Shown here piece after piece: positions 781-62,585 of a DNA stretch of 64,000 nucleotides (the first letter of the stretch is position 1; every line of letters begins with the position of its first letter). The position numbers were made by a program, and so were the translations under genes. The notes under the pieces were generated by a model. The model had not been told where the DNA came from. It was given only the letters and a program-made list of their open reading frames with translations, and ran no database searches. Source of the stretch: Takakia lepidozioides (taxonomy: Eukaryota; Plantae; Bryophyta). The stretch lies in the NCBI GenBank assembly GCA_030704615.1, contig CM060731.1, positions 58,404,001 through 58,468,000 of the forward strand, read 5' to 3'.

Positions 781-3093
781 GGATCCATGCAGAATATAAA
801 ATCTGTGGATATGCAAAGAAGATTGAGCGATATGACAATGAGTATCATCACTCGCATAGTGCTTGGGAAAAAATGGTTTGGAGTAGAGACGACTACTGAG
901 GAAGGTCAGGAGTTTAAGAGCCTACTTGTAGAACTTTTTAACCTCTCTGGTGCTTTCAACCTTGGTGACTACATTCCATTCCTAAAGCCTTTGGACCTGC
1001 AAGGCTATGAAGCCCGCATGAAAAAAGTTGCTGCAAGCATGGATCGCTTCTTTAGTATGATGATCCTAGATCATCGGAAAGAAGGAATAAACAATTCAAA
1101 TGCCCAAAAAGACCTTGTAGATGTATTGTTGTCTGTTGTTGGCGAGGAGGGTGCGGAGTATACGGTTGACGACTCTTCTATGAAAGGACTCATGATTGTA
1201 AGTATATTCATCTCCTCCACATGTACTCATATTTTTATTTTTTTTTATGTAAGACGTTGTCCATATGTTGGATTCTCTCTGGCTTCACTCTGTCTCTATT
1301 GTTTGGGCGTAGATTCCCTCTGGACAGACCAATTTTCTCTGTAACATTTAATACCGTTACTAGATTACAGCTTACTCTGTATTGCAATTTTCTCAAGATT
1401 GTTTAAAGGTTGGCCATTATCCATTTGGGCTCTTGATCGGAAACCTAGATCATCAAGAAAGTACACATGTAAGTCTCAAGCATATAATAACTTTGTAGAT
1501 ATGATGGATCACATAAGACCGACCAAATCAGCAAATTGGGACCCACCATTAGATGAAATCGAGGACATGCCAAACACTCGAAAGTGGCAACTAGAATTTA
1601 CTTACTTTAGCTCTAACCAGGTTTCAAAACCCTTTTAATCTGTCACTATCACAAATCACATATCATCTTTTCATGACTTTCTTGGATTTGAATTGTTTGT
1701 CACAATGGCGGAGCACCATGGATAGGGATAGAAAAATATAGGATAAAGACCGTGTGTGGATATCTTACACCTCTCCTTTGTTAGGACAGAAATCCATAAC
1801 CTAGCTTTTGACGCAATTTCCTATGTCTCAAAATTAATTGCGTTTGAGCAATCGAGCTAGTGACATGTATACAACTATCTTCACATATATTTACCTGGAA
1901 GAAAATTTGGATGCAAATTTTGATGAAAACCGCTTATAACTAGGTTATGTACAATATCCACCAAGACTACCTAGTGCTTGGCTATGGGATGTAGCCTCAT
2001 GGGTAATCATAATCCTTTGGTCACCAACCCATCCCACCAATTGGAAATGGAATCCACAACCCCAAATAGAGAACATCAAGCTCTAACCAGTAATCTACCT
2101 CATTCATCTTGATTTTTAGTGGATAATATTATTAAAACTGGATAATAGAGGATGTTTGAGCACTGTATGCCGCTTGTATGCCGTGCAGCCTTATGAGGAC
2201 AAGGTTGTACTAATTTGGAGGCCACAAGTGATATTGCTCTTTAGGCACCTTTAATCTTTTTCTTTTTCTTTGAGTACCTTCTATTCCGACCAAGCAAGGG
2301 TACAAAACATGTAATCCTTTATATCTGGAAGCCCTGACTGATGCTAGCAAAGCCACAAAGTCAATAGATCTTTACATGACTCAAAGAGCTCGTCAACTCT
2401 TAAATGCACACATAGACTGGTTAGAAATACTCGAGATGATTTATCTCATCGTGTTGATTCTTGATGCAGGATATTATTGCGGGGGCCACTGACACATCGG
2501 CAACAACTATAGAATGGGCGCTCACACATCTCTTGCGACATCCCAATGCAATGAAGAAAGTTCAAGAAGAATTGGATGATGTGATTGGGTGTGATAGGTT
2601 GGTGGATGAAGCCGACATTCCTCGGCTCCCTTATCTTCAGGCAGTTGTGAAGGAGACCCTACGCATCAGCCCTCCAGCTCCTTTCCTGCCGCATGAGAGC
2701 ATTAAAGCTTGCCAAATAGCAGGCTACCATATTCCTGCAAAGACACTGACAATGGTAAATGTATGGGCTATTCATCACAACCCATCTGTTTGGCAGAAGC
2801 CTCATGAATTCATTCCAGAGAGATTTGACAACAGTAATATGGATTTGAAAGGCCACGATTTTGAGCTCTTGCCATTTGGATCAGGGCGACGAGGTTGCCC
2901 AGGCTTGCATTTAGGTTTGATTATGGTTCAAAGCAGTCTGGCTCAACTACTCCAAAGCTTTACATTCGCGCTTCCAAACGGCCAGCATCCCCAAGACTTG
3001 GACATGAGCGAAGTCTTTGGGATCACGACTCGCAGAGTTGTTCCATTGCAAGTTGTCGTGAAAGCTCGCTTGCCTCATCACTTGTATACTTAA
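781..3093 (+). CDS. Cytochrome P450, CYP71 clan (A-type), 3' exons: 781-1197 and 2470-3093; N-terminal exon(s) not in the window or lost
   Basis: First exon encodes FNLGDYIPFLKPLDLQG and DLVDVLL, then GTAAGT donor at 1198 and TGCAG acceptor ending 2469 (phase-0 intron just before the I-helix, the conserved A-type position). Last exon has DIIAGATDTS, KETLR, FIPERF and heme motif PFGSGRRGCPG. The 5' boundary 781 assumes the CAG at 778-780 is an acceptor. Confidence 0.9.
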
Positions 3094-7424: not shown

Positions 7425-8970
7425 TTATAAGAGCCTCTTGCCCTTCATGGGTCGAACAATTTTCAGGTTTGACACATTGCAAGCTTCACGAGGATCATTC
7501 ACTTTGCATTCAATGGGAATATTAGCCGTCGAACAAGTCTCGTTTGGGAGTTGCAAGCACCTCCCCTATTAGCATTGACAAACGTCTCTTGCCCTTGATG
7601 GGTCGAACAATTTTCAAATTTGACGCATTGCAAGCTTCACGAGGATCATTCGCTTTGCATTCAATGGGAATATTAGCCATATTTGTGTCGACCAAGTTTT
7701 GTGTGGGAGCTGCAAGCACCTCATCTGTTGGAGTCGATAAGAGCCTCTTGCCCTTGATGGGTCGAACAATTTTCAAATTTGACGCATTGCAAGCTTCACG
7801 AGGATCATTCGCTTTGCATTCAATGGGAATAACCGTATTTGTGTTGAACAAGTTTTGTCTGGGAGCTACAAGCACCTTGTCTGTTGGAATCGATAAGAGC
7901 CTCTTGCCCTTGATGGGTCGAACAATTTTCAAATTTGACGCATTGCAAGCTTCATGAGGATCATTCGCTTTGCATTTAATGGGAATATTAGCCGTATTTG
8001 TGTCGAACAAGTTTTGTCTGGGAGCTATAAGCACCTCGGCTGTTGGAGTCGATAAGAGCCTCTTGCCCTTGATGGGTCGAACAATTTTCAAATTTGACGC
8101 ATTGCAAGCTTCATGAGGATCATTCGCTTTGCATTTAATGGGAATATTAGCCGTATTTGTGTCGAACAAGTTTTGTCTGGGAGCTATAAGCACCTCGGCT
8201 GTTGGAGTCGATAAGAGCCTCTTGCCCTTGATGGGTCGAACAATTTTCAAATTTGACACATTGCAAGCTTCACGAGGATCATTCACTTTGCATTCAATGG
8301 GAATATTAGCTATATTTGTGTCGAACAAGTTTTGTGTGCCGGGAGCTGCAAGCACCTCGTCTGTTGGAGTTGATAAGAGCCTCTTGCCCTTGATGGGTCG
8401 AACAATTTTCAAATTTGACGCATTGCAAGCTTCACGAGGATCATTCGCTTTGCATTCAATGGGAAAATTAGCCGTATTTGTGTCGAACAAGTTTTGTTTA
8501 GTAGCTGCAAGCACCTCGTCTGTTGGAGTTGATAAGAGCCTCTTGCCCTTGATGGGTCGAACAATTTTCAAATTTGACGCATTGCAAGCTTCACGAGGAT
8601 CATCCGCTTTGCATTCAATGGGAATAACCGTATTTGTGTCGAACAAGTTTTGTGTGGGAGCTGCAAACACCTCGTCTGCTGGAGTTGATAAGAGCCTCTT
8701 GCCCTTGATGGGTCGAACAATTTTCAAATTTGACGCATTGCAAGCTTCACGAGGATCATCTGCTTTGCATTCAATGGGAATAACCGTATTTGTGTCGAAC
8801 AAGTTTTGTGTGGGAGCTGCAAACACCTCGTCTGCTGGAGTTGATAAGAGACTCTTGCCCTTGATGGGTCGAACAATTTTCACATTTGATGCAATGCAAG
8901 CTTCATGATGATCATTCGCTTTGCATTCAATGGGAATAACCATATTTGTGTCGAACAAGTCTCGTATAGG
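7425..8970 (-). repeat. Coding minisatellite, 10 units of 156-162 bp
   Basis: Recurring GATGGGTCGAACAATTTTCAAATTTGACGCATTGCAAGCTTCA on the + strand. The tenth unit (7425-7535) is out of frame after an 8-bp deletion. Confidence 0.95.
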
Positions 8971-9126
8971 ATCAGTTGCAATCACCTCGTTTGTCTCGGG
9001 TTTGGAGAAACCCCTAAGACCCCGTGTAGTTGGGACATTTGAAGCTGTCACGGTACAATCGATGTTGAGTGCAATGACAATAGCTGCCACGACTAGTACC
9101 CACATAGCTCCATTGAGGCGCTCCAT
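7522..9126 (-). CDS. Secreted tandem-repeat protein, candidate multi-core Cys-loop peptide precursor (534 aa from ATG 9126)
   Basis: Hydrophobic signal-like N-terminus MERLNGAMWVLVVAAIVIALNIDCTVTA, then 9 in-frame units of consensus NLFDTNT(A)xIPIECKANDPREACNASNLKIVRPIKGKRLLSTPTDEVLAAPTQ. Indels between units are multiples of 3. Confidence 0.8.
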   Translation of the reverse strand: MERLNGAMWVLVVAAIVIALNIDCTVTASNVPTTRGLRGFSKPETNEVIATDPIRDLFDTNMVIPIECKANDHHEACIASNVKIVRPIKGKSLLSTPADEVFAAPTQNLFDTNTVIPIECKADDPREACNASNLKIVRPIKGKRLLSTPADEVFAAPTQNLFDTNTVIPIECKADDPREACNASNLKIVRPIKGKRLLSTPTDEVLAATKQNLFDTNTANFPIECKANDPREACNASNLKIVRPIKGKRLLSTPTDEVLAAPGTQNLFDTNIANIPIECKVNDPREACNVSNLKIVRPIKGKRLLSTPTAEVLIAPRQNLFDTNTANIPIKCKANDPHEACNASNLKIVRPIKGKRLLSTPTAEVLIAPRQNLFDTNTANIPIKCKANDPHEACNASNLKIVRPIKGKRLLSIPTDKVLVAPRQNLFNTNTVIPIECKANDPREACNASNLKIVRPIKGKRLLSTPTDEVLAAPTQNLVDTNMANIPIECKANDPREACNASNLKIVRPIKGKRRLSMLIGEVLATPKRDLFDG

Positions 9127-9235
9127 GCCTTTGAGGCAGAAGCTTAAGTGAATGACGTCTTTTATGTTTCTCAAGTGAAATAAATGAAGAGAGCGAAAAG
9201 ACACAGATAATACATGGGAGGGGGAAACACGAGAT

Positions 9236-9242
9236 ATTTATA
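9236..9242 (-). promoter_or_regulatory. Putative TATA box of the repeat-protein gene
   Basis: TATAAAT on the minus strand ~110 bp upstream of the ATG at 9126. Confidence 0.45.
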
Positions 9243-9822
9243 CAATCTATCTATATTTTATAATTAATAAAATACTAGTATAATGTGATGTACTATGCTT
9301 ATTAATACATATTTTTTTGTCTTTTTGTTTTTTTTGAATAAGAAACTAAGAAAGAAAAGTTTGACCAGCACAAACTTTTCATTAGATTTTTTTGGTTTTC
9401 CTAATATGTTCTAAAATTGACAACCAACTTTACGTATCTACTACGATGATTGTAAGAAAATCAACGAGTGTACAATTTTCATCTAATGGATTGAAATGTT
9501 TTCATTGGTGTTTCAGTACGTATGATTTTGTTAGTAGGCCGGTGTCGAGTAGTATTTATGCACGTAGGTGGACTGGGCATGGTTTCATGGTGTAGTAGGG
9601 CAAAGACACAGAAATAGCCATGGCAGGGTGGCATGGTCTAGGGTCGCCTTCCATAAATAGACCAAACCAAACTAAGTCTATGTGCTGGAAATTGTTTTGT
9701 GCATGGATGTTGGTAGGTGATGAGCGGGTGAGTAGGTGAGTGGTGGAGCCCTCTTGAATGAATCTGGACCCTACCTACCACACACTAGTTCCTATGCTGA
9801 ATTGCTCGGACCAAGACTTTAA

Positions 9823-10659
9823 CCCCTAATGGACGAGGCGACCCGTTTTGGGTCGCGTCAGGGTCGCATCAAAAATCATCCACGATGGCAAATCGTTGGA
9901 TGACCTTGGATGAAAAAACTTTCTGAACGAAAGTTGTGCACCTTGATGTCATGCACCTACTCGTCTTTATGACACCCTAAAATAATGAAAGTCCTGTCGT
10001 CAATAATTTTTTTTAGTGTGCAGGGGTGCCCAAAATTGGTCGTCCAGCAGCTTTGACTTAGTGACGTGGCAGGCTGAAGGGGTGACAACAAGGCAAAAGT
10101 ACAAATGGAAACAAATGCAAATCTCTGCCTGAATTTTTGTTAGAATTCTGAATTTCTTTTTGGAGGTAGTAGTTCATCATTCAAGGAACACTTTCACCGC
10201 AACAATTGTGATTCCAAGGAAATTTCGACCCCCTAAGCCTGAATTACATGTCATTTGAGCTTCATGGTGTGTTTTGACCCCCTATTTTTTCCATACAAAG
10301 CAACCTTATCAAGATTTTGGAATTCTGCTTTGAAATTTTGGGGCAACATGCTTTAGGTGCCACATAATTGGAATCTGGATGGGGTCTTGCGAGGAAAAAA
10401 TATTTTGTCGATCCAATTTCCTGGTCAAACCATTTTTCCACTCTAAATTTGGAGTGTACCCCAAATTTGGGGCTTGACGGATGAGGGTATATCTCTCAGG
10501 AAACTAACATCCACAGTGATGAACCGTATGAATGGGAGGCTACCTACTTCATCCAACTTCTGTGAAAATTTCAGCTCATTCCACCGTGTCGTTTCGAAGA
10601 TTATAAGAAATGTCCTGTTTTGGAGGGGGCCCACTAAGAACTGCCTCGTCCATTAGGGG
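9823..10659. mobile_element. Non-autonomous piggyBac-type DNA transposon (837 bp)
   Basis: TTAA (9819-9822), then CCCCTAATGGACGAGGC ... GCCTCGTCCATTAGGGG, then TTAA (10660-10663): perfect 17-bp TIRs with CCC/GGG ends and TTAA TSD. No transposase ORF. Confidence 0.8.
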
Positions 10660-21179: not shown

Positions 21180-22074
21180 GCTAAGCAAGGTCATGGTGGA
21201 GAGGCATTTGAACTCTCTGAACGTAATGTGGTCGGACTTCACCCCCTCCCACATCAACTGCTCATAGGTCTCCAAAACCTGCAATCCCCGCCCCTGTTGT
21301 GCATGTCCTGCGATCATCACTTTCCACGACACCACATTTCGCTCAGCCATATTGTTGAACACTCCCTATCTAGAAGGGTATTCATGTTCAGAATGACATC
21401 TACCACAATTCCAGCTTTGACGATGCAACCATGGACCTCTTTGCCCTTCTCCAACAGGCTCGCACATGCACTACAAACACAAACAAACATAATGTGCTCG
21501 GGCTTCACCCCCTAGACCCACATCATTTGCTCATAGGTCTCCAAAACCCGCAATCCCCGCCCATGTTGTGCATGTCCTGCGATCATCACGTTCCACCACA
21601 CCACATTTCGCTCAGCCATATTGTTAAACACTCCTTGTCCACAAGGGAATGCTCCCACGTTTGGCATACATGTCGACGAGGTATTGTTACATCTGGTACA
21701 GTTCCAGCTTTGACAATGTCACGATGGACCTCTTTGCCCTTTACCAAGTCTCCAGGGCTGCCAGGTTTGCACATGCATTGCAAACACAAATGAACGTGAC
21801 CCGGTCAGGCTGCACCTCTTCTCAACATTTGCTCATATGTCTCCAATGCCCTCATCCCGCACACATGCTGGCCATATCTTGCGAGATTCAGCGTGTTCCT
21901 TGAGACAACATCTTGTTCAGCCATGTTATCAAACTCTCCCTTCGCAACTTCATAGGTCTCCAAAGCCTCCATCCCACGTCCCTGCTGTGCATACCCTGCA
22001 AGCATCGCACTCCACGACACTACATCTCGGCAAAACAGGCTGAAATAGCTCAAAGAAGAAGGTGCCCTCACCAC
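21180..22074 (-). pseudogene. Degraded PLS-class PPR gene
   Basis: Several frameshifted motifs: DVVSWSAMLAGYAQQGRGMEALETYE, FVCVCSACASLLEKGKEVHGCIVKAG, RNVVSWKVMIAGHAQQGRG. Confidence 0.85.
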
Positions 22075-22847: not shown

Positions 22848-25800
22848 ATGCAGTCGATTCGGAAAAGACACGAATGCTTCTAGTGAACCATCCCTCCCCA
22901 CGTCTTCAACCAACCCTGGATGGAGGAGGCCCTCCCTCCTTTCCACATAACACTGATGCGTTTTATCCCCCTGGCATTCAGAGGTATGCACAGTATGAAC
23001 AACAGACTGCTCATGTTCCAGCCGCCCCTGAAATTCACCCGCCCTTTTCTCAGTCGTACAATGCAAACAGCCCGTCAGGGGAGAACCGGACATGTGCAGT
23101 TCCGTGTGGGGCATTTCCACAAACTGGGGAAGCACAACATGCTCCTGTTCAGCATGGGCACTACCACGAAGGTGTGTGGTACCCTCACCCCAACCCTCCC
23201 CCACCTGCGCATCCTCCCCAAGCAACGTATCCCAGAAGCCCCATGTATAGTGCGCCGTTGCATGGCCCTTATTCCAGGCAGCCCATAGCTTCACCCAATT
23301 GCAACGCTTCGCGGCCTCTTCAATTCCCAAGCTCACCAGCTTTGAGCACAGGTTATGTTCCTGCCCACCCCACACCCCACGTTGGTGCGTGGCAAGGTTC
23401 ATGTCCGCCCGAAGGGCCCCATGTTGCAGGTTGTGAGGGAGGAGAGGAGGCCCGTGATTCCAATATGACTCCAGATGCGCAACATTGACTGGCAAGGACA
23501 GAGCCAATTTTTTGCGCAAGGCGAGGAGAGTAGCACGGAGAGGGTTGAAGGAAACGTCTTGTGCAAATGTAGCTGCTGGGCAAAAGAGATTCATAGTTGC
23601 GTGTGGCAAAAAGGGCCCATGCGGGGATGCACGAAATGACTGGCTGGCAGCCCTGCGAGGGCAATGCCAACGTGTGCTGGACTGTTCTGTGCCCATCCAT
23701 CTTCAACCTCAAAGTCTGATTGACGAGGTGGGTGAACTATTAGCAGATGATTGGGAATATTTACCTCCTGGGATAACTGGCGCCCAACTTCGAACTGAGA
23801 TTGGAGGCGTCATTAAATACCAGCGCATCAAACTGTTTAGAAAAGTGTACTCCCGTGGCAAACCTAAGCCCCACTATGTTGCGGACAAGACTTGGGCAGA
23901 ACTTGTGAGGCATTGGAACACGCCCGAATGGCAAAAGAGTCGTGATGATGGCAAGCATGCACGGGGGCATGTTGGTGCCCCTTCGAGATCTGGACGCAGT
24001 GGCCTTAGCGGCGTTGAGGAACGTCTGGTAAATCTGCCTGTCTCATGACATTGCCAATATATTCAGGTAGTGAGGTGTCTTGTCATTTGTATCTTACTCT
24101 TAGAGGATGGCACTAATATTCCCATATCATGTCCATGTGTAGGCTAAGACAAGTGGTCGTCCTCCACTTCTATCCGAAATTCGGGGAGCAAGAATAGCAA
24201 CAAGGGGTATGGTTCTGATTCAGCAGGGGCCACCCGATTTGTAAGTAACTAACCCACCTGCATTTGTTGCAATGATGTGCTTGTCAATTATTTATGGTTT
24301 TGCCTTCCTGTGTTGTTGTCCAATAAATTACCTCGCATGGCTAGTGCGATAGATGTATTGAATCGTATTTGCACTCTTTTTGTGGCAGGGCCTTGGAGCA
24401 TTGGCTTCTCGGCTTGATGGCTTGGAAGGATGGAAACATACAATGGAGGCCAGCTCAATGGAGCACAAATTGGAATTGCAGGTAGTGAAATCCATGTTTG
24501 CCGCTGCAGTATCTAAGACAGACAAGTTCAACATGGCATTGGCAGCGAAGCTCGGTTTGGACCTGCCGAGGGGTGAATCTCCATCAACATCAAACATTGT
24601 GTGTGAGTTGTCGCCCCCTGTTCATGGTGTTGTCCCACCTGCGACTACAGTGGAAATGACAAGTACAAGTGAGCAGCCTCCTAGCAGTGGAGGCAGTGGA
24701 CAAAGGAAAGGGGGCAGTATTGTGGAAGAAGATGCCACAGGTGAGGACAAAGTTCAGAACATGGCATGTGACGATCCTTGCCTTAATTATGGTGCCAATG
24801 ATGACCTATCCCCCCTTATTGAGAAGGGAGTGCCTGTACTGGAGGATCACACCGGCAGTGAACTTAGACAGAGTGCCCAAGACATAGGGGCAGGGGCTAA
24901 GGGCACAGGAGTGGTTATTGTTGGGGCAGGGAAGAACATTGATTCAACAACAAAATTGGCCGTTGTACGGAAGGTAAGTACTCGTGTTCCTATATTCTTG
25001 TGCAGTTCCAAGTCGATTATGCAATACCTGCAGGCCGTTCATGACTTCTGTGTACATGTGTGGGTTTCTATTGATTCAGAAGCCACCAAAGGAAATTGTT
25101 GCGGTGAATATGAGGAAGAAGTCCGCAAGACTTGCTGCCAGCAACGTTGATGGGAGCCGTATGGGAAGCTTCAAAGCGCCGGCACCTGTTGTAAGTTTTC
25201 CTTCGTGGAAGTACATCCGTATTTTGTTTGTAGGGCTATATGATGGTATCTCGCGTTTTCCCTGTCCATAACTGTTGCATGTGCATAACAAATGACAAGG
25301 GCACACATTGGTGGTGTTGGCTGTCCCAGTTTCAGGTTGGTGACAAGGTCACAATGTTTGACCCCAATGCACCCAAACGGAAGGCAGGCGTGGGCCATAT
25401 ATTGGGCATGTCGACTGACTGGCTGGCTTATGTCGTTCATGCCGATTATCATGTTGTCTCTGTTGAATCAGTACATGGGGCAGATGTTGCTCTACCATAC
25501 CCCAACAATGATGTTAGGCCTCCCATTGTGATGCTCAGTGACACTGTAGGCATCACGGCCCTGTGGTCTGCCAAGTTCCTCAAACTGACCCGAACATGAG
25601 GTTGTGGGGGATCCTCAATTTGAAGGCAATTTTGACTGAACGCCACTTCATATCGATTTCACCTTTTTTTCGTTATTGTGCGCATCAATGTAGGATTTGG
25701 GTACATTGTGGGTTGTGATCAGCAGTGCAGACTTTGCAATACTTGCATGTTCAGACTAAACTTTATTTGGGCAATGAAGGGCGCACCCAACTTTGAAGCA

Positions 25801-26833
25801 CCCTTGCATCTGGTCATTCTTTCTGTTGTTCTGGCCATGCTTAGTCAATTGTCCATGTCATGAGCAGGTTGTTGCCGCAGTGCTTTGGAATTGTGTTTAT
25901 GTATATGAGTCATATTTCACATGGACTGTGAAACTGACAGTGTGGACAGTATCACGATTTGTGATATGATCATGATGCCTATGGAATAATTGTGCACACC
26001 ATGACGTCACAAATATGTGAAATCAACCGTAGCTTGCTTGTGGCATCTTCCACATTTTTGTGGAATGACCTACAACATCAGCAGTAGAATATTTCAGACC
26101 CACTATGGTATGCTCCTGTGGCTATGTGGAATGACCTACAGTATAGGCAGTAAAATACTACACACCCACTCCATGCAGATTACGCCACGTGCCGTCCTCT
26201 CCAAAATACACGCGTTGCCCATACCGTTGCCCACATGTCGTCAAGCCCAGGTAACAGGGTGTCGCATCATTTTCCCGTAGGTGTGGACAAGTCCACACCC
26301 TTTGTACGTTTAGGATCCACGTGGCGGTGTTTGCCATGGAACACGTGGCCCCCAAACTTGCTGAAGCTGTGAAAATAGCTAGTGGATGGTCTCACACCGA
26401 ATGGCTTTTTTCACACCCACATGCCACGCCAGACACGCGCTCCACATAAGTGCACATCGCCTCTTTGTCTCCATACACGTGTCATCCCCACAAAAATACA
26501 TGTGTTGCACACACCGTTGCCCAGATGTCGTGAAACCCTGGTGACAGGCAATCGCATGGTTTTCCCGTAGGTGTGGACAAGTCCACACCTTTGTACATCT
26601 ACGATCCACGTGGCAGTGTTCGCCAAAGCACACGTCGTTCGTGGAAAAAGCCATGAACCCCGTGAAAAGGCCACCCGTGGACTTTTCCACAGGGCCACCC
26701 GAGAGCCAGGCCGTCCACGGGGTGTCCGAAAGCACTCGTCGTTTCTTACACCCACGGCAGGTGTGGACTGGGGCGGATTCCACAGGAAAAAGTGTGAAAA
26801 AAACCGTGGAAAAAGCCGTTTTTTCTTCTAGTG
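22848..26833 (+). mobile_element. CACTA (En/Spm) transposon 3' half with a degraded, intron-containing TnpA-like gene
   Basis: KPHYVADKTWAELVRHWNTPEWQK...GRSG resembles Ptta/En/Spm Transposase_24. ORF 25240-25599 (VSVESVHGADVALPYP...GITALW) resembles the TnpA C-terminal domain. 3' terminus TTTTCTTCTAGTG ends at 26833 with subterminal CCGTGG/CCACGG repeats. 5' CACTA end not found. Confidence 0.75.
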
Positions 26834-27548
26834 AGTGTTCAGTGAGCGGGAGATAGGGGAGTACTGCTTTGTCTCTACCTGGCAGAAAGAGGAGGAGGGT
26901 TGGTTAGAGCGAGCTACTGTAGCTTGGGACAAGGTTAGTGGCAGGTTTCTGGACATAGATATACCGCCTACACCTTACCATCATGCATAGCGAGGCACTT
27001 TGAGAGAAGTCTGGCAGTTGATAGCATAGATCAGGATTAGATCTTGCTTGGTCGGGCTTCTATTCTTCCCCTCCATCTCTTTACTATTTTCATTACTTTA
27101 TACTTGTAGTTGCCAAAGCCTCTCTTGGTGGAGGCCAGTCAGTCCGGGGTTTTGGGCTGGGATATTCTGCAGGATCAACATTGCAGATGGATTTTGGTGT
27201 GGGGGTGTTGATGTTTTGATTTCTTGTGTTTGGATCCCCCCCAACACCTGCATGCTTGACTGTGCGCCATGTTGGTTTGTGTGGGCGCTTGCTTTCATAG
27301 GGATTAGGCCGGATTTGATCACCGGTCAATCCTAGAGTATGCTGTCGGTGGTGAGGCTGGAGTGATGACCAGCAAGACCACCAGTGTTTCTTCTATGGTG
27401 AGACTGGGTTGATGACCAGCCAACCATAGGAGTTCTTGCGGTGGATGCAGGTGCAGGTGCCCCGAGCCACTGGGATATGACCCTTAAACTGCAACAGGTA
27501 CCTACCCGTGTCACTATTAGAATTAGTACTAGAGCCTTATAGTGTCAC

Positions 27549-30500
27549 GTGGGGGAGGTGCACATTGAGAGTGTCATCACGGAGTTACCCAGGGGTTCTA
27601 AGGGGAGTACGGCTACAGGCAGTAGCAGTGAGAGTGGGTTCACCAGACGAGGTGTTCGTTTCAGACCACCTTCACCTCTACCCTCAACTAGTGCAGAGTC
27701 AGACACAGACTTGGAGGCTTCATCAACAGGTGTGCAGTTTCATTCGCCATTATTGTGGGACGACATAGAGGAGATGTATGGAGCTACCAAGGGGCCTTGT
27801 AGGTACTCTAGAGCTGTGGGCATAATTGAGTTGGATGACTTTATCCAGGAGTTTGATAGCTGGTGTGATTTGCAGCAGATGCGCAATCCACAGCTATTCA
27901 CCCCATTCATGGCGTGGAAGGGACTGTTCCAACATTTGGAAAGCCCGCCTATGGACGATTACCACGAGTTCAGGCGAGGACATGAAGCAGAGATTGAGGA
28001 GTGGAGGATGTATTGGTCACCTGACTACGTCTCCATTACTCGAGGCACGACGCGACCAGTAGCTGCATCAGTACCAATATCTCCCACTGCCAGCACTAGT
28101 AGTGGAACAAGTAGTGTCGGTACTTCTGCAGGTGGTACCAGTTCAAAAGGTGCTACTACTCCTTCTGCCACGACTACAACACATGTGCCTGGATTCAACC
28201 CGGTGGTGGAGTTCTTCCAGGAGTTGCGGAGGAACTACCAAGGTGTACGGACTGAGAAGCTGCGAAGTTTGCAAGACTTCCAGCGCAAACCAGTGAGAGC
28301 CTGCGAGAGGCGTACACTCGTATGAGGCGCTTGATAAGTGTGACCCAAGGGGTTACTGAAGCTCAGGCAATCCAGTTTTGGTATGGAATTCTGGACAAGG
28401 AGCTCAAGAGAAGGGTGCGAGATGCAACTCTATTACAAGCAGCCCAACCCACATTAGCAGATGTATTTCTGCTGGCTGAGCGGATTGAGCTCAACATGGT
28501 GGAGGAGCGCATTGTTACCATTGGATTTGGCAAGGACATGCCTGCACGAGGCGCAGCTGCCAGCCCACATGCACAAGGGACTGCCCAACAGCGTGGTCAG
28601 GGGGGCAAGGTTTCCCAACCCAAGTTCCATGGAGCTTACAGGGGACCTCAGGTGCAGAGGCCCGTGGCATCTTTTGCAGGCCAACAGCAATCAGGGGTGA
28701 TATGTTGGACATGTGGAGGACCCCATGTCAAGAGAGATTTCCCAGAGAGTGGCAAAAGGCCGGCACAAGCACAGCTTGCACAGTTGCAGTGTGGGCATTG
28801 TGGCAAGTATGGGCATGGAGATGCCCAGTGTTATGACTTGCATCCTGAGTTGCGCCCAGGCCAGTTCCAAGGGAACAATGGTGGCCGGGGGCGAGGTGGA
28901 CCAGCCCAGAGAGGACGAGGTGGCCGGGCACAAGGTGCAAGCCAAGTGCAAGCTCAACATGGCCAAGGACGCGGAGGTCAGGGTGTTGACCAAGGCATGG
29001 CCAACCGACTTCAGCAGCTAGAGCAGAGACTCGCTGCCATGGCTACAGCTCAGGCGGTACCGGCTCCCAGGCGGGATGGTCCACCTCTTGCGCCTGAGGG
29101 AGGAGATATGGGAGACATGGGATTCATGTGCGGAGCAGCACTACCACTAGTGCAGGTGGAGTCTGCTGCAGCTGTGACTCGAGGAGCAGCACGAGTTCCT
29201 GAGCCACGAGGTGCAGAGGTGGAATTGGATCCACAGCGTGGGAAGGCAAGCCGTCAGGCGAGGCTTCCTCAGTCATTCACATTGGCGGAGACTGTGTCAA
29301 CGCCATCCATGGCACCTAGTTCTCGCCCGACTGTTACCGAGGCGGAGGTTACTATGCCATTGGGGAGAGCTACACGTGCAGCACTGACACCTGCTACCAA
29401 GGCTAGTGCAGCCGGTGTGTTGTTGGGGGCAGCCACCTCTGTGTGTCAAGCCCCACTATTCTCGGCAACCATGATTGCGACGCTGGGGGTAAGACTAGCT
29501 GCAGTGTTCAAACTAGCAGCAACACTCTGTGAGAGTGGGGATGTCACTTCATCTTCTGCGGAGTTAGTGGAAGGTGTAGTGGCAGAGGGATCCTCGGATT
29601 TGAGGGTCAAGACTACCACGACTGCGCCATGGCAAGCTGCAGCTGCCAGGTTGACGGAGCTGCCAGCTAGGCCAGCCTTTGAGCGCGCCATGGTGACACC
29701 TGGAGTTGTCTTGTTAGACAACCAGGATGACATTTTCACTTTGAGTGGACCGGCAAGCAAGAAGTACCGGCCAGTGCGGGTCTTGTTGAACTCGGGAGCT
29801 CATCCACTGATGTTGGGCAGAGCTGCTATTGCAGGTTTGGGCCTCATGGAGGTGGATATGGAGCCTTGTCCTTTCCAGATACATACATCTCTGGGAGGAT
29901 CAGAGCAGGCTCGGGGCATGACACGGCGTGAGTTGGCCATTGGACTACAGCCGGATCACCCTACAGATGGCTCAGTGATGCGAGCCAATTCCATTGTGAC
30001 AGACGCGGTCTCGTACGATGTCCTGGTTGGTGGGGCTGTGTTGTACCCCATGGGCTTCATCCTGGATTTTTGGGAGGAGTCAGCTTCCTATAGGCCTGGA
30101 TGGCAGTCAGGGGAGGGTCGTCGTGTACAGCTCCCTGTGACATTCATTGGAGGTATTGCGGCTGCCCAGCGGGGCAGGATGCCAACACTAGCCGCCTTTA
30201 CAGCTGCAGTTAGTTGGCCTGGAGAATTGTTGGAGGGCAATGCCCATGCAGAGGATGTGCCACCTCCCGCAGAGCAAGATGACATGCATGGTACGGCGGA
30301 GTTGCCTGCCATGGTTGCTCACACTCCATTGTGGGGTACGGGCAAAGATTTGCAGCAGGCTGCTGATGGACGGGTGCAACAAGCCTGGGTAAAGGCCTTT
30401 GTACCGTCAGGGGAAGAGGAGAGTGCGGTGACTGCACCAGGAACACCTCAGTTGTTGCCATTGGACACCACACCTCTTGTGTGGCAGTGCCCGGATGAAG

Positions 30501-31894
30501 GCATATGCCTTCTGGACTTGTTTGGCGGGATCAGCACTGGATTGGCTGCAGTGCTGCAGGCAGGTGTACGAGTTCGACGTTACCTGTATGTGGAGAGGGA
30601 TGAGACTGCACGACGTATCTCACTGCGCCATGTTGCTCAATTGGTACAGCAGTACCCTGATTTGTTGCCAGTGTCTGCAGTTCGTGGATACCAACAAGCC
30701 TTGCCAGCAGACATTTCGTTGCTGGGGGCGCAGGATTTGGAGCAGGTTGGCTCCATTGATCTGGTAGTGGCAGGTTGGCCCTGCCAAGGGCATTCATCAG
30801 CCGGGCATGGCAATGGATTGCGAGACTCGAGGACGGGTCTGTTTTGGGAGATGGTGCGGATTTTGCGCCACCTGCAGCTTCATCAAGCTGTACCTCTAAC
30901 ATACATCTTGGAGAATGTGCCACTGATGGGTGATTCTCGGGCCAGGGTGATGGACAGTGTGCATCAAGTCCGGTCATGGCTTGGGTCAGCAGTGTTGTTG
31001 GATGCAGCTGCAGTGGGGTCACGGGCTCATCGTCCACGGCTTTGGTGGACTAACTTGATGCCACCCGCACTGCTCAAGCGTGCATTTGATGGGGTGCAGC
31101 GGCCAGCACACCTCACAGTGGATAGCATTTTGGACACAGGGAGGCAGTCTCAACGTGTGAGACACAATGACCGTTCGCCTTTGGTAGTGGTCAACAGGAT
31201 GGGTCAACCATAAGCAGCATTACCTACACTGCTCAGCTTCCCAGGATCCCATGCTTTTCGGGATGGTGGACCTGGCCTCTTGTGGGATAGCCAGTTGCAA
31301 CAATTAGTGGAGCCCACTGCTGACGAGCACAAGCGGGCGATGGGTTTTACCACTAGTACCATGGCGGTGCCCTCTTTTTTTTGAGGCATCACGTCATCAG
31401 GTGTTGGGGCAAGCAATGGATCTCAATTGCTTGACCTGGATCATCAGCTTGGCTATGGCTGAGCAGCGCAGAGTGCGAAGTATACTTCCCTTCATGGTCT
31501 CCCTGCCTACCGAGATGGTATAGGCAGCGAGTGGGGGCGAGCAGGTGGGGACCACAAGGTGCAGGCCGCATCCATGGCACACGTGGGAGGTGCTTGAGGT
31601 TCATAAGGAGTTGGCAGCCAAGGCGGCGGTGATGGATCAGGTTGGGGATTTTTCTCGGGTTGAGGAGGACCTCAAGGATGGGATGATGGGGCAGGGTGAG
31701 ACATTGTCACGGACAGAGGAGGCAGTGGTCACTGCTCATGAGGTTGCAGCATAGCAACCACGGGACGCGTCTTCTACCTCTAAGCCTGCTGGACTCAAGG
31801 TTGCAGTCACGGAGGACAACTGGGAGCCTGATATTGGACCTATAGTCACCGGAGGAGAGAGATGACGTATACGGTGGTTCTTGAGGGCTTACAG
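27549..31894 (+). pseudogene. Gag-PR-DNMT polyprotein, disrupted by a frameshift near 28293, a stop at 31211 and a frameshift at 31375-31382
   Basis: Gag (ESLREAYTRMRRL), knuckles CWTCGGPH and CGHCGKYGHGDAQC, protease VLLNSGA/YDVLVG, then the MTase domain. Confidence 0.85.
30503..31450 (+). pseudogene. C5-cytosine DNA methyltransferase domain
   Basis: Motif I LDLFGG (30512), II YVERD, IV AGWPCQ (Cys at 30782), VI ILENV (30911), VIII AHRPRLWWTN. Past the stop, IX EHKRAMGF; past the frameshift, X VLGQAMD (31404-31421). Confidence 0.92.
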
Positions 31895-32532
31895 TGTCGC
31901 GGCCCTTTGCCTTGAGGGCAGGGGGTCGGGACACAAGAGGGGCTGCTCCTGTGGTGGGGGCAGTGGCAGCGATAGGTATGGGGGGCAGAAGCACCCTTGA
32001 GTGCCCAAGGCACTCAAGGAGGCGGAGGCACTCACTAGGTGGAGCCCCGCACACCGGGTTGCGGTGGGGGTGGCTCCACAAGGGGTGGTGGTAGCTTAGC
32101 GGGACCGTGGTGGGTGGGCCAAGACTCACCGCGACTCATCACCGGGAGTCGAGGGTGTTCGTGGTGGTTCGCCATAAAATGACATGGTTGTTTGTGAAAC
32201 CCCCGCGGACAGCTACAGAAGTATATATAGGGAGTAGTAACCTCGAGAACGGTGCAAGTCCGTTAGTGACCAAAAACTAGTGAGTAAGCGAGCGAGCCGG
32301 AAAGCGACCAAAGAGTGGGGAGCTGTTTCGGACTGCCAACTACCAAAGGGAATTCCGCTGGTTCCAAATCGTTGGAGGGTTCTTTGGGAGATCAAAGGGG
32401 GGACCGTTATGCCCCGGTGAGCAGCCGGAGCTCCAAGTTGGCCCGGCGGCCAGGTTGGGAGTTAGGCGCGCGTATCCAGCGAGTAACTATGACTTGAGGG
32501 GGGGAGAGTTTACCGAAGTGAGGTGCGCGACA
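31895..32532 (+). repeat. Family C 5' LTR (638 bp)
   Basis: 7-bp terminal inverted repeat, followed by PBS TGGTATCAGAGC at 32535-32546; its start matches 58647-58796. Confidence 0.9.
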
Positions 32533-32587
32533 TTTGGTATCAGAGCTTAGAGTTCAGTACGCGATCGTCTTTGGGATTGGCCTCATC

Positions 32588-34987
32588 ATGGGGTCGGGCA
32601 AGCCAAAGCGAAAGCGGAACGGCCCAAAAGATGATGATCCTGGTGAGCCCGATGGGGGCGACGTGTCATCGAGGCGGCCGTTTGAGGGAGCGATACATGT
32701 TTCCGAAAACGAGGCCGCTCAAGAGCGGGAGGAATCTGAAGAGTCGGAGCCTGAGGAATCCTTGAGAGCTCCGACCGACCAACAGATGCCTCCCATGCCG
32801 GCAGCCTTTTGGGAAGGGTTGTTGGCGCAAATTTGGCGGGACGTTGAAAGACGTGTTGAAGGCGGCTAATGCCACTTCCACTAAGGCAAAGTTTAAGGTG
32901 AAGCCTAAGGAACCCGGCACCTTCGAGGACGTCCGAAATCGGAAGGCACTCAACACCTGGCTCTTGGAGCTAGAGCAGTACTTCCGGGTGGCCAAGTTGA
33001 GTGACGAGGATCGGGTGGAAGTGGCTCCCACCTATTTGAGGGGCTATGCTCAACAATGGTGGCAGAAACGCCTTCACGACCGAGGTCCAAGCCCGGAAAC
33101 CTTGAACTGGAGTGGGTTCAAGGAATTGATGAAGAGGCAGTTTGTGCCCCTCAACGCGTCCTGGCTTGCCCGGGACAAGATGAGGAATTTGAAGCAAACA
33201 GATGACATTCAGGGATATGTCCAGGCTTTAATGTGCTGTTGCTCAAAGTCGCGGACATGACAGAACCAGAAATGGTCTTCAACTTTGTGGCGGGACTGGC
33301 CCCATGGGCCAGGCGGAAGTTGGAGGAGAAGCCACCTAAGACTTTGAACGAGGCAATTGAGAGGGTTGAATGTTTCTCGGATGTCCCTAAGGGTGAAAGA
33401 CAAGGCCGTACGGAGCTGAACCATAAGAAGACCCGGCGGGAAGGTGACTCCTTCCGACCGGAAAAGAAGTGGGATAGGCCACGCGGCAACAATGGCACGT
33501 GGAAATCGAAGGGAGGGCCTTTACAAGTCAAGGCGGCACCCGATGCTTCGAAAGGAAAAGCGGGTGGAGCGGCCTATGGCGGACAGAAGGCGACCTTTGA
33601 TGGAGTGTGTTTCAATTGCGGGGAGCCCGGGCACATGGCCAAGAAGTGCACGCAATTGAACATGACTCGGGTGACCACAGAGCTGTCGGAAGATACCATC
33701 AGTCGCTTGGTGGAAGCGGTGGTCGCGAGGACTTGCAAGGTAGGCAAATTTTCTTGTGAGTTGTATCAGGAAACTGGCACCTTACGTAAAGGGAGTCAGT
33801 TATTGTTCGTGGATGGGGTAATATCCGGAACTAACGTGTCGTTGTTGGTGGACACAGGAGCGTCGCACTCCTTCATGACACCGGCAACGGCACAAAAACT
33901 GGGACTCCCGACAAGTGACGTGGGGGCCTCTATTCAGGTGCATTCTGCCAAAGGAGAACCGCAATTGGCGACAAGGTTGGCGTTGATGTTCCTCTTCAAC
34001 TGGGGAGTTGGGAGGGACGTGAGAACTTCACCATCTGCGAGATCGATGGAGTGGATCTCATTTTGGGGATGACCTTTTTGAGCAAATCCGGAGCGGTCAT
34101 AGATGGCCGCAAGAGAGTAGTCACGCTGCCATGTGGGAATGGTGGCGAGGTCTTACGAGTGTCGGAAACGCCCAAACCCGTGGGAGGGAGAATAAACCTT
34201 CTGTCAGCAAGGGAGTGGGCCGTGGAGGAGGCACACGAGCCCCAGTTTTTGCTCTACATTAGAGAAGTGAAGGGAGAAGGCGATGGGGAGCCGAGCCCAG
34301 ATTGGATCAAGGGGATTTTGGAGAAGTACCAGGATGTGATGCCGGAGGATTTACCAAGCGGCTTGCCACCGCAAAGAGGAGTTGACCACAAGATTGAGGT
34401 GATACCGGGATCGGAACCACCTGTCAAGGCGCCCTACCGGTTGAGCCATAGAGAGTTGGTCGAGCTGAAGACTCAGCTCAAAGATCTAATGTCAAAGGGG
34501 TACATCCAGCCGAGTAAGTCACCTTACGGAGCCCCGGTGCTATTCGCAGACAAGAAGGATGGGACGCTGCGGATGTGTGTCGATTACAGGGCTTTGAATA
34601 AGGTGACTATCAAAAACCGGTATCCTTTGCGAAGGATCGACGACCTTTTTGATCGGTTGGCAGGAGCGAAGTATTTCAGCCGGATCGATCTGCGCTCCGG
34701 CTATCATCAAATTCGAGTGGCGGAAGAAGATGAGGAGAAGACCACGTGCAGGACAAGGTATGGTTCATATGAGTTCTTGGTGATGCCTTTTGGACTCACC
34801 AACGCTCCCGCGACCTTTAGCACGCTGATGAACAGCCTTTTCCAGGAGTGGTTGGATGACTTTCTGATCGTGTACATCGACGACATCTTGGTGTATTCAA
34901 AAACAAAGGAGGAACACCTGGAGCACCTCAAAAGGGTGTTCCAGAAATTGCGGGAAGGGAAGCTGTATGCCAAAGCTTCAAAGTGCG
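32588..34987 (+). pseudogene. Family C gag-protease-RT (frameshifted, 5' part)
   Basis: [49 protein letters not shown]. Confidence 0.9.
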
Positions 34988-43695: not shown

Positions 43696-44195
43696 NNNNN
43701 NNNNNNNNNNNNNNNNNNNNNNNNNNNNNNNNNNNNNNNNNNNNNNNNNNNNNNNNNNNNNNNNNNNNNNNNNNNNNNNNNNNNNNNNNNNNNNNNNNNN
43801 NNNNNNNNNNNNNNNNNNNNNNNNNNNNNNNNNNNNNNNNNNNNNNNNNNNNNNNNNNNNNNNNNNNNNNNNNNNNNNNNNNNNNNNNNNNNNNNNNNNN
43901 NNNNNNNNNNNNNNNNNNNNNNNNNNNNNNNNNNNNNNNNNNNNNNNNNNNNNNNNNNNNNNNNNNNNNNNNNNNNNNNNNNNNNNNNNNNNNNNNNNNN
44001 NNNNNNNNNNNNNNNNNNNNNNNNNNNNNNNNNNNNNNNNNNNNNNNNNNNNNNNNNNNNNNNNNNNNNNNNNNNNNNNNNNNNNNNNNNNNNNNNNNNN
44101 NNNNNNNNNNNNNNNNNNNNNNNNNNNNNNNNNNNNNNNNNNNNNNNNNNNNNNNNNNNNNNNNNNNNNNNNNNNNNNNNNNNNNNNNNNNNNNN
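43696..44195. other. Assembly gap (500 N)
   Basis: Run of n. Confidence 1.
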
Positions 44196-56089: not shown

Positions 56090-57801
56090 GGCATGTGATT
56101 ACATAAGATGGGATCAAAATGGATGATAGAAAGGTGAGGGCGATCTTGGACTTGGAACCTCCGACTTCGGTCCCGGGAGTGCGATCCTTCTTAGGACTCA
56201 CCTCCTATTACCGAAAGTATGTGAGAAATTTCGCCAAGATTGCGGGGCCACTGTCAGACCTTTTGTGTAAGTCCAAGGTATGGGTATGGAACACTTTTTG
56301 TGGCCAAGCTTTTGCCGAGTTGAAGCAGCAGATGGCATAAGCTCCAGTCTTGAAAATCCCGGAGTTCGACCGTCCATTTGAGATTCATACAGATGCGTCG
56401 GACTTCGCAATCGGGGGTGTGCTCATGCTGGATGGACGTCTAATGGCTTACGAAAGTAAGAAACTGCATGAAGTGGAGCGACGGTGGCCTACGCACGAGA
56501 ACGGACAATGTCACGGTGAAGTATTTTGCCACACAGCCTAAGTTGTCCCCAAAACAACTTAGGTGGCAAGACACCTTGGCCACGACGGAGCCAAGCGCAC
56601 CGCGGCACTCTTGAAGAAAGAGTATTTCTGGCCCAAACTGAGGGAGGAGGCCGAGGAGTATGTCAAGACATGCACCACATGCCAACAAAACCGGAACGAG
56701 TAAAAAAAGCAAGCGGGGCTGTTACAACCCTTGCCGATTCCAGAGGGGTCTTGGGAAAGTGTCTCGATGGATTTCATGACTGCTTTGCCACTGTCAAAAG
56801 GATTCGATGCAATCATGGTGGTGGTGGATAGGTTCAGTAAAATGGGCCATTTCATCCCCACCAAGGAGACGGCAACGACGCAGGAGACGGGGCGACTTTA
56901 CTTTGCCCACGTCTTCAAGCATCATGGACTCTCGAAGGATATTGTCTCGGACCGCGATCCAAAGTTAAAGAGTGAACTCCGTGGTGAAGCAGATCTTGCG
57001 GAATTATGTATCGGCAGACTAGTTGGACTGGGTGGAGCACTTGGATGCGGCAGAGTTCTGTTATAATAGCACAAACACTCCGCAACGGGAGTTTCCCCTT
57101 TTGTATTGGTCTATGGAAAAGCACCTCTGATGCCGACAAGTTGGGCCGCCCAGGACGTTGAGGAACCGGCAGCAGCGGCAGTGCTAGAAGAACGGGAGCG
57201 TTTGTTGAAGCTCGCAAAGTGCAACATTGCCAAAGCTAGGAAACGGTATGAACGACAGGCGAATCGGAAGCGGAGGGAAGTTAAGTTTGAGGCAGACACG
57301 GAGGTCTGGTTGAACATCAAGAATTTTCGACTACCTCCGGAAGTGAGTCCGAAGTTCGTACCTCCGTATGCGGGGCCCTTTTGCATCCGGAAGGTTATGA
57401 ATGATGATGTGTATGAATTGGAGCTGCCGGCAAAGAGCAAGGTGCATCCGGTATTCCACGTTTCTTTTTTGAAGCCTTACTTCAAAGATGAAGCGCGTCC
57501 GAATCGGCATCAAGTGTTGCGTCCGCCACCCGTGCTGTTGGATCATGAAAATGAACCTGAGTATGAGGTGGAGGCAATGCTTAAGTCGAGGAGGTTCAAG
57601 AATCGAGAAACGGAGTATCTCGCGAAATGGAAGGGCTATCATCATGTGGAGGCATGTTGGGTGCGTGCCTCAGAAAATGGGAAACGCATCCGAGGCGGTT
57701 GCAGCTTTCGAAGGGCGACCTCAAAAGCGGAAGAAGCGTTGATGGGGACATCAACCTTAGATCGTGGGGGAGGAAATGCATGCTTAGCCCGGTTTAGCTA
57801 G
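56090..57801 (+). pseudogene. Family C RT end, RNase H, integrase and chromodomain (internally deleted, frameshifted)
   Basis: GHVI, VRSFLGL, HTDASDFAIG, SMDF...VVVDRFSK, SDRDP, YAGPF, VHPVFHVS, EYEVEAML...YLAKWKGY. Confidence 0.9.
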
Positions 57802-58646
57802 CTCAGGAATTCGATTGCAAAAACTTGTATTGTACAAATTTTGTTATAAATGAAATGGTTTCCAAATGTTGTACGTCCTATTTTGTTTGGAATGGTGATG
57901 CATGGTTTGTTTGGCTAGTGTGTAGAATGCATGCTAGCTTACAAAAGGGGGAGAGGTAAATTGGATTAACAGTGTGTTTGCGTAGTGCCGAAATCGGGTG
58001 ACTCCCATCCAAGGAGCAAGGAAACTTGCACCTTCTTTGGGAGTTCAGGTGCTAGTGCACACCTGGCGCGTGCGCGTACTATAACTGCGCTACCGAGGGG
58101 GTTGCCTTGTAGTGCGGGCTAACACGGAAGCTACGTGCTTCCGTTCACGTACTATAATCGTGTAGCCTCGGGATGAAGTCGTAGTGCGGCTTCGGCGTGT
58201 TCCCGTACCTCAGGCCAGCATTCCAAGGCGAACCCAATTGTAGTGATTGGGGCGCACGGTTGGTTCAAGGTTATTTTCCTAGTAAAAAAAGGTTCAAGGT
58301 GAACCCTTGCTCAAGGTGATGCCAAAAGCGGCATCACGAGTGGTCGTAAGCAATATTGTTGCAGTAAGGCGATTCGATCCTTGAGGAGGATCGTTCCTTG
58401 GCCTTGAAGTGGGCCAAGAAGAGTGCACTGGGAGGAGCTTGAAAAGCTCCGCCCTTGGCTGGGACTTGGAGGAAGTCGGCCGAACTAGCTGGTGGAGAAT
58501 CGAGTCAAGTGGGGGTTTGGTTCTTTGCCATGGGACGCCATGGTACGGAAACAAACTCCTTGATGTTGGACGCCACAACTTGGATGTTCGTTTCTATAAA
58601 ATGGACAGGTCGATGAGGACATCGACTCCCTGTTGGTAGGGGTGTG

Positions 58647-58796
58647 TGTCGCGGCCCTGTGCCTTGAGGGCAGGGGGTTGGGACACAAGAGGGGCTGCCC
58701 CTGTGGTGGGGGCAGTGACAACAATAGATGCGGGGGCCGAAGCACCCTTGAGTGCCCAAGGCACTCAAGGAGGCGGAGGCGCTCACTAGGTGGAGC
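58647..58796 (+). repeat. Family C 3' LTR, first 150 bp only
   Basis: Matches about 31895-32045; preceded by G-rich GTTGGTAGGGGTGTG. Confidence 0.85.
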
Positions 58797-62204: not shown

Positions 62205-62585
62205 GTCTGTATGCCTTGCAGCCTCATTAGGACAAGGTTGTACAAATTTGGAGGCCACAAGTGATATTGCTCTTTAGGTACATTCAATTTTTTTCTTTCT
62301 CTTTGAATATCTTCTATTCTGACCAAGCAAGGGTAAGATGGTTAGTCATTCTTCTTTGGGTAAGTTTATATGTGTGGGGTCATGTACCACAATCATGGGG
62401 GACTTCTACAATTTGCAATTACAGCGCTACGGATGAATTCCTATCTGGAAGCCTGGCTGATGCTAACAAAGGCACAAAGTCAACAGGTCAACAATCTCAA
62501 AGAACTCGTCAACTCTTAAATGCACACATAGATTGGGTAGAAATACTCGAGATGATTTGTCTCATCGTGTCGATTTTTGATGCAG

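Follow-up and report, generated by a model that had tools for sequence, protein, structure and literature searches.

A 64,000-nucleotide stretch of the genome of the bryophyte Takakia lepidozioides (GenBank assembly GCA_030704615.1, contig CM060731.1, positions 58,404,001 to 58,468,000, forward strand; hereafter the window, in whose numbering all coordinates are given) contains a Gypsy-type retrotransposon that carries a DNMT3-like C5-cytosine methyltransferase (MTase) downstream of Gag, two CCHC knuckles and an aspartic protease (27549..31894). We consider it probable that this DNMT element is a dead copy of an abundant bryophyte family in which the Gag–protease–MTase frame ends at a conserved amber stop, and in which reverse transcriptase (RT), RNase H (RH), integrase (INT) and a PHD finger are made by occasional readthrough. 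Sequence comparisons indicate that a retrotransposon-borne C5-MTase lineage related to an element of the alga Klebsormidium persists in land plants, as a previous reading of the window from its letters only (the sequence-only reading) had proposed. New here are the abundance in land plants, the reach into chlorophytes with the domain at a different position, the candidate leaky stop and the anatomy of the ends.

An open frame of 985 codons (28256-31213) contains the Gag C-terminus, both knuckles, the protease and MTase motifs I, IV, VI and VIII, in agreement with the sequence-only reading, which had also described the element as one polyprotein. That description holds from the Gag C-terminus to the MTase. 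The Gag N-terminus lies in another frame, with the break near 28289, and a single polyprotein is not supported because a conserved stop parts Gag–protease–MTase from RT. The Gag N-terminal part is 58% identical to residues 1-166 of Marchantia Mp_4g09160, and the window open reading frame (ORF) is 52% identical to that protein over its 970 residues. The features are:

26835..27542, + strand: 5′ non-coding part of the DNMT element; the depth of related contigs climbs in bin 26702-26935
27543..28325, + strand: Gag N-terminal part, first ATG at 27774; a frameshift near 28289 leads into a different frame
28256..29692, + strand: Gag C-terminal part, knuckles and linker
29693..30145, + strand: aspartic protease, aligning with the LDSGA protease of Marchantia
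30491..31466, + strand: DNMT3-like C5-cytosine methyltransferase, interrupted by a stop at 31211 and by a frameshift within the T8 run 31374-31381
31467..31751, + strand: linker closing ORF1; the stop at 31521 is private to the window copy
31752..31760, + strand: amber stop (31752-31754) and CAA CCA, which fits CAR YYA; candidate readthrough site
31761..31894, + strand: start of ORF2 (pre-RT segment), resembling the ORF2 start of the related locus L001 and of Marchantia; the stop at 31863 is private to the window copy
31895..32534, + strand: 5′ long terminal repeat (LTR) of an unrelated Gypsy element interrupting the DNMT copy; its first 153 bp are repeated at 58646-58796

The copy is dead and has been interrupted twice. 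A CACTA-like transposon that runs up to 26834 (Transposase_24 match at 23458-24045, E 3e-4, under its curated cut-off) has displaced the true 5′ end, and in a related contig, X5, the alignment starts at 26834 and other sequence continues beyond. Downstream, the LTR that starts at 31895 falls in the pre-RT linker, where the sequence-only reading had placed an insertion; it belongs to a chromodomain-bearing Gypsy element (Chromo domain at 57070-57798), and the primer site that follows it at 32535 is presumably of the tRNA-Met type. Searches within the window found no RT, RNase H, integrase or far end of the DNMT element and no LTR belonging to it; the copy is without both termini. Contigs X5 and X8 run past 31893/4 into RT, and these contigs, together with the relatives, are the ground for placing the MTase between protease and RT. 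Knuckle 1 (28703-28741) is degenerate and lacks its last Cys, and knuckle 2 (28790-28831) is complete. The protease reads LLNSGA (29783-29800), with Asn in place of the catalytic Asp; in the unbroken relative L053 this region matches Asp_protease_2 (E 2e-4). Protease substitution and stops had already been taken as marks of death, which is right for the Asn and for the stops at 31211, 31521 and 31863. The stop at 31752 is a conserved feature of the family and not decay.

A contig search with 26000-33000 (run X1) returned 70,905 contigs, with a summed depth of about 450,000-1,260,000 over the coding bins of the element and 7,600-10,200 over three flanking CACTA bins; summed contig depth is not copy number, by the tool's own warning, and we read it solely as indicating a highly amplified family. 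The stops at 31521 and 31863 are not shared by the other copies of the host (about 98% of the depth differs). By contrast, no variant occurs at 31752-31760 among the best 40 of 69 rows, and a single X8 contig with 23 substitutions in all has none at these positions.

The stop ahead of RT could be assessed in 43 of 79 loci from a metagenome scan, namely those with the MTase end and RT start within 600 nt. It is present in the RT frame, 17 or 23 codons ahead of the RT match, in all 43 (29 TAG and 14 TAA), and is directly followed by CAR-YY in every case (CAACCC 38, CAACCT 1, CAACCA 1, CAGTTA 2, CAATCA 1). As a control, CAR-YY follows 15 of 936 other in-frame stops inside domains. The full UAG CAR YYA consensus is found in the window (TAG CAACCA at 31752), L001, L053, L054, L059 and L110 (TAG CAATCA), and the independent evidence for the stop amounts to four families, between which synonymous divergence (dS) is near or at saturation. 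In four Marchantia ORF1 proteins (1278-1281 aa) the motifs of protease and MTase are intact and the chain stops 97 residues past motif X, matching the stop position, and an unbroken ORF2 of 1047 aa follows the stop in L053, L059 and L110. The two ORF2 proteins scanned, from L053 and L059, have the order RT–RH–INT–PHD (PHD finger E 2.6e-10 and 4.3e-10).

UAG CAR YYA is the readthrough signal of tobacco mosaic virus (TMV) in plants (PMC2754532, PMC2194720; the papers cited here were available in part, and what we say of them applies to those parts), and CAR YYA after UAG drives readthrough in plants, reaching 32% for TMV in one reporter (PMC2754532). Because the stop and CAR-YY resemble this type of signal, Gag–protease–MTase is likely to be the major product and RT–RH–INT–PHD the readthrough product, in which case the MTase would accumulate at the level of Gag.

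The MTase motifs lie in frame as the sequence-only reading had them (I, DLFGG, 30515; IV, WPCQ, 30776; VI, ENV, 30911; VIII, RAHRPR, 31022). A motif IX-like segment (31325-31348) and motif X (GQAMD, 31407) are recovered past the stop at 31211 and the T8 frameshift, respectively, again as anticipated. PF00145, the profile suggested as a check, matches the unbroken 240-aa MTase stretch with E 8.5e-15. The motif order is linear and unrearranged (I-IV-VI-VIII-IX-X) and the domain is intronless. Its best matches in the PDB are DNMT3A/B/C (profile E 1e-17), followed by DRM structures (1e-8 to 1e-6) and M.HaeIII (4.5e-7). We can confidently assign a DNMT3-like fold: the predicted structure of the natural unbroken L001 domain, which is 68% identical, has pLDDT 91.9 and pTM 0.91 and matches DNMT3A along its whole length (E 3e-20, TM 0.73/0.83). 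Motifs I, IV (Cys-Gln), VI and VIII are kept in 20 of 20 long ORF1 proteins checked, and motifs and fold predict a C5-MTase. We rejected identity with plant DRM, which has a permuted motif order, and with a host plant DNMT3 gene; neither the window ORF nor L053 ORF1 has a Pfam match to DUF3444, and the domain sits inside a Gag–protease frame.

Purifying selection on the MTase is visible between families alone: lineages that replicate keep the domain under constraint, and it decays once a copy has inserted. Over the first 240 MTase codons the ratio of nonsynonymous to synonymous divergence (dN/dS), a comparison that the sequence-only reading had proposed, is 0.107, 0.114 and 0.135 among L053, L054 and L059 (dS 0.25-1.3). 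Between the window and nine other copies it is 0.106-0.132 in six pairs (dS 1.8-2.5, near saturation) and 0.286 in one, with two pairs saturated. RT of decayed copies of a Sphagnum-type family gives 0.44-0.70 (three pairs).

Homologue searches returned 38 and 64 proteins, led by 73-75% matches from assemblies and then Calypogeia fissa (72%). They also include many Marchantia polymorpha gene models, the best of them 69-70% identical over the MTase domain, and proteins of Sphagnum, Closterium and Klebsormidium (KFL_009030040). The Gag–protease–MTase fusion is common to Marchantia, Calypogeia, Sphagnum, Closterium and Klebsormidium, which contradicts the possibility, raised against the sequence-only reading by its own author, that no other copy would have it. 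Many of the 79 metagenomic loci have the order Gag–knuckle–protease–DNMT–RT–RH–INT.

A profile search extends the family further, to 400 clusters with E 1e-30 or better. Among the best 150 of these, 55 have DNMT alone; the rest mostly have DNMT between RNase H and integrase, including 27 with full RT–RH–DNMT–INT–PHD, and 10 have protease–DNMT and end there. Among 10 such clusters whose species was looked up, one could be given a name, Scenedesmus, again with DNMT between RNase H and integrase. The position of DNMT thus differs across the wider family, most of which (P0240 and P0067 are examples) has it between RNase H and integrase, indicating either that the domain moved within the polyprotein or that it was captured twice. 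Many wider-family members carry WECQ instead of WPCQ at motif IV.

In a 60-row tree of retroelement and phage MTases, the window domain forms a clade with copies from Marchantia, Calypogeia and Sphagnum (SH-aLRT 100). This bryophyte clade sits within a 53-row green-lineage retroelement clade, which also contains the Klebsormidium domain, apart from the 7 phage MTases. A bacterial or phage origin of the domain was rejected: the 30 loci from a viral scan were no stronger than E 2e-15 and of partial length, and a prokaryote scan gave one locus, L110 (CADCWO010000201.1), a near-complete copy of the DNMT retroelement inside a cyanobacterial bin. L110 and P0052 are element copies in bins labelled Synechococcales and Obscuribacterales, and probably reflect eukaryotic contamination of these bins. 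ESM Atlas matches to the domain are generic phage MTase clusters only and are uninformative. In an RT tree, built from rows free of stops and short matches and without named lineage references, Marchantia RTs are interspersed among the Sphagnum-type copies, on terminal branches of roughly 0.05-0.1 changes per site, which is short for the liverwort–moss split; horizontal transfer is a possible explanation.

The ends of the element can be described from relatives only. Self-comparison of loci of the Sphagnum-type family identifies two repeated segments, A and B. In six loci the 5′ end consists of A and the 3′ end of B-A-B; the 3′ end is a single B in 12, which may reflect assembly collapse, recombination or one-repeat circles. 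B is found upstream of the 5′ A in none of 23 loci with a visible 5′ A. The layout is thus A–internal–polypurine tract–B-A-B, and the paired LTRs expected by the sequence-only reading are not seen. The termini are TGTC...GACA, flanked by 4-bp target duplications in 7 of 9 end pairs and by duplications agreeing at 3 of 4 bases in the other 2 (one of the 9 pairs was matched across two loci). B begins directly after the purine tract, and the B|A junction is GACA-GC-TGTC, identical in L059 and L110 and with a single mismatch in L053. In 8 of 10 copies the sequence just past the 5′ A is complementary to a site within A (9-17 nt), which in 6 of these 8 lies just downstream of a TATA-like box; in 1000 shuffles the longest complement was 13 nt, and 59 reached at least 9 nt. 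From the purine tract, primer site and junction it follows that B+A behaves as the true LTR, that the inserted form is a circular permutation and that priming is likely to be self-priming.

In retroviral chemistry DDE integrases typically leave two-base overhangs, and cutting the junction palindrome after each CA would leave overhangs of this kind. The L053 and L059 ORFs match rve (the DDE integrase PF00665) and the H2C2 integrase domain, and GACA-GC-TGTC may be cut in this way. Several known classes were considered for the element and rejected. Membership of the DIRS/Ngaro/PAT class is countered by the lack of a recombinase match in the L053 and L059 ORFs and by the 4-bp duplications, and that of the chromoviruses by the PHD finger and the lack of a Chromo match in ORF2 of the same two loci. 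A canonical LTR retrotransposon would have paired TG...CA LTRs, whereas the relatives begin with A and finish with B. Troyka elements, known only from animals, have CG...CG termini and 3-bp duplications (PMC12440569), compared with TGTC...GACA and 4 bp here, and were rejected as a source of the ends. An alignment of the 5′ untranslated regions of five elements was mostly unalignable. One stretch is common to the window (27340-27510) and L053 (850-1000), with GATGACC/GGCC repeats and TGCAGGTGCAGGT, despite 47% identity of their MTases; it could possibly contain splice acceptors or a packaging signal.

Building on the observed domain order, the stop with CAR-YY, the purifying selection on the MTase and the ends of the relatives, we infer the following cycle. 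Most ribosomes would halt at the amber codon, so that MTase is produced and enters the particle in the same proportion as Gag, to be freed by the protease. Self-primed reverse transcription would then yield cDNA with B+A as its true LTR. This cDNA would circularise, and the DDE integrase would cut the internal palindrome to give permuted ends. The cDNA would be methylated by the packaged MTase, probably at CG, and thus bear the mark by the time it enters chromatin, and the PHD finger would tether integration to chromatin. More tentatively, the combination of leaky amber stop, MTase-loaded particles, self-priming, methylated cDNA circle, palindrome-cutting DDE integrase and PHD guidance may define an ancient Gypsy-like lineage spanning the green plants, an extension that we regard as possible rather than probable.

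Several observations weigh against the proposed cycle. The CAR-YY sequences of 39 of the 43 loci are CAACCC or CAACCT, which depart from CARYYA at the sixth base; these 39 loci also belong to a single family, and some of them represent one insertion that was sampled twice. RNA folding 3′ of the stop gave no consistent signal (z < -2 in 2 of 6 folds). The primer-site complement that would serve self-priming was not found in the window copy. MTase dN/dS is 0.32-0.98 in decayed copies of the Sphagnum-type family (10 pairs). The observed/expected CpG ratio of the DNMT element (0.47) is not distinctive, falling within the 0.22-0.87 of four other Gypsy stretches measured in the window, and we dropped CpG depletion as a sign of self-methylation. 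The MTase tree contains no host DNMT3 or DRM rows, and independent captures of the domain may account for the clade that the bryophyte and Klebsormidium elements share. Finally, the domain of the Klebsormidium nitens element KnitGypsy-Dnmt3 gave no methylation in yeast, a result its authors called inconclusive (PMC5890265).

The same element and stop could serve a different end if the MTase acted on host chromatin or integrated copies, silencing the element itself or suppressing competitors or viruses, rather than on particle cDNA. Abundant expression at the Gag level would suit any abundant role, and an antiviral function has been proposed for transposon-borne methylases (PMC6338049). Fusion to Gag and protease should, from Gypsy biology, place the domain in the particle, however, and the Klebsormidium methylome is plant-like (PMC5890265); we think this reading rather unlikely. 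Somewhat less likely still is that the domain is kept for binding DNA or RNA, or for protecting or positioning the circle junction, with catalysis secondary. The lack of activity in yeast would fit, as would the co-occurrence of MTase and permuted ends in Klebsormidium and the Sphagnum-type family, but retention of the catalytic motifs in all 20 long ORF1 proteins and the confident DNMT3-like fold argue against it.

The stop itself might be a true terminator, with RT–RH–INT made by splicing or re-initiation. Most Sphagnum-type copies have an ATG two codons past the stop, and gene models of Klebsormidium and Closterium (P0033, P0064) join MTase and RT in one protein, although as models alone. 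That ATG is absent from the window, L001, L053, L054, L059 and L110; linkers of 288, 330, 399 and 408 nt hold both frames aligned, and CAR-YY is retained while the adjoining codons drift, all of which makes a terminator improbable. That a host DRM/DNMT3 gene was captured just once, or that the sequence is algal contamination, is the least credible account and one that we practically discount: the absence of host DNMT3 rows from the MTase tree leaves room for it, but named proteins of liverworts, mosses and algae have the same fusion and the family spans the 400 clusters, the domain is linear, intronless and without DUF3444, and its neighbours are of land-plant type (CYP71-clan and PPR). Readthrough at a conserved stop, supplying MTase at Gag level, is the account we favour.

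The closest described system is KnitGypsy-Dnmt3, reported in 2018 as an acquisition in the K. nitens lineage (de Mendoza et al., PMC5890265). Its Dnmt3-like domain, too, lacks introns, is unrearranged, lies in a Gypsy polyprotein and is under purifying selection; the A-coding-B-A-B repeat layout is shared with relatives of the window copy. KFL_009030040, with the order protease–DNMT–RT–RH–INT, is 45% identical to the window domain over 72%. In that paper the element is known from Klebsormidium, whereas the family here is abundant in land plants. Its available text and three text supplements contain no mention of Marchantia, the text none of 'PHD', and we found no mention there of a pre-RT stop, target duplications or self-priming. 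SymbioDIRS-Dnmt3 of Symbiodinium also has a Dnmt3-type domain in Pol and A-B-A-B repeats, and its domain methylates CG de novo in yeast (PMC5890265); it uses a tyrosine recombinase, in contrast to the DDE integrase and 4-bp target duplications of the relatives here. TMV-type readthrough and the stops of SIRE1, Tca2 and murine leukaemia virus likewise involve an in-frame amber stop followed by CAR-YY(A) (PMC2754532, PMC2194720), but the latter three stops lie at gag/pol or pol/env, whereas the stop here follows protease and MTase and precedes RT.

Tcn1/Tf1-Sushi chromoviruses of mosses share the Gypsy domain order and predicted self-priming in place of a tRNA primer, but their LTRs are paired in the ordinary way and they carry a chromodomain, unlike the relatives here with their permuted ends and PHD finger (Neumann et al. 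2019, PMC6317226). Elements were scored in that survey only if they had paired TG...CA LTRs, and its available text mentions neither PHD nor Marchantia. The host enzymes PpDNMT3a/b have a DNMT3-type domain with linear motif order but carry DUF3444 at the C-terminus, which typifies the DNMT3 genes of plant hosts (Yaari et al. 2019, PMC6453930). The available parts of PMC12344493, PMC11244446, PMC10952607 and the bioRxiv preprints 10.1101/363937 and 10.1101/2021.11.30.470311 contain no land-plant case. In the literature searched, which did not cover most subscription papers or Repbase, we came across no account of this element from land plants, of a stop between MTase and RT or of a permuted-LTR mechanism.

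The surroundings of the element indicate a land plant, as the sequence-only reading had held, and a bryophyte resembling mosses is the likely host. A CYP exon (2467-3090) has its highest identities, 61-66%, with Sphagnum proteins and at most 55% with the angiosperm CYP71 clan (48 hits, single-domain identities), and PPR fragments occur at 21180-21718, below curated cut-offs and judged by eye to be of PLS type. A CYP71-clan P450 tandem duplicate with adjoining PPR remnants, 92-94% identical, lies at 766-3093 and 62496-63208, about 60 kb apart on either side of a transposon nest. Within this nest, copies of a different LTR family lie inside one another at 34987-56089, in both orientations; they have long additional ORFs past integrase and 10-bp GCTGTG tandem arrays, and an assembly gap occurs at 43696-44195. 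On the minus strand, an ORF of 571 codons (7522-9237) has a signal-peptide-like start, about nine repeats of 52-54 aa with two Cys each and weak Pfam matches alone. Another minus-strand ORF (59592-60224) adjoins a truncated 3′ LTR (58647-58796) and has no Pfam match; it contains a CxC...CxH motif, which we take to resemble a SWIM zinc finger.

Morozov et al. 2019 (PMC6338049) wrote that land plants 'such as tracheophytes' have no methylase-encoding transposons, a statement that is contradicted at least for bryophytes. Because its ends are permuted, standard LTR annotation would miss this abundant family, and its copies inflate DNMT gene counts in bryophyte proteomes and show up as contaminants of prokaryotic bins. 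What retrotransposon-borne cytosine methyltransferases do was not settled in 2018, because their hosts were difficult to study. Marchantia polymorpha, a genetic model for which methylation mutants exist, has unbroken Gag–protease–MTase frames annotated as hypothetical proteins, making self-methylation of cDNA directly testable; the leaky stop predicts far more MTase than RT per particle. If the wider proposal is true, the lineage would represent a distinct replication mode that LTR finders have missed, and may be a second source of de novo methylation in bryophyte genomes.

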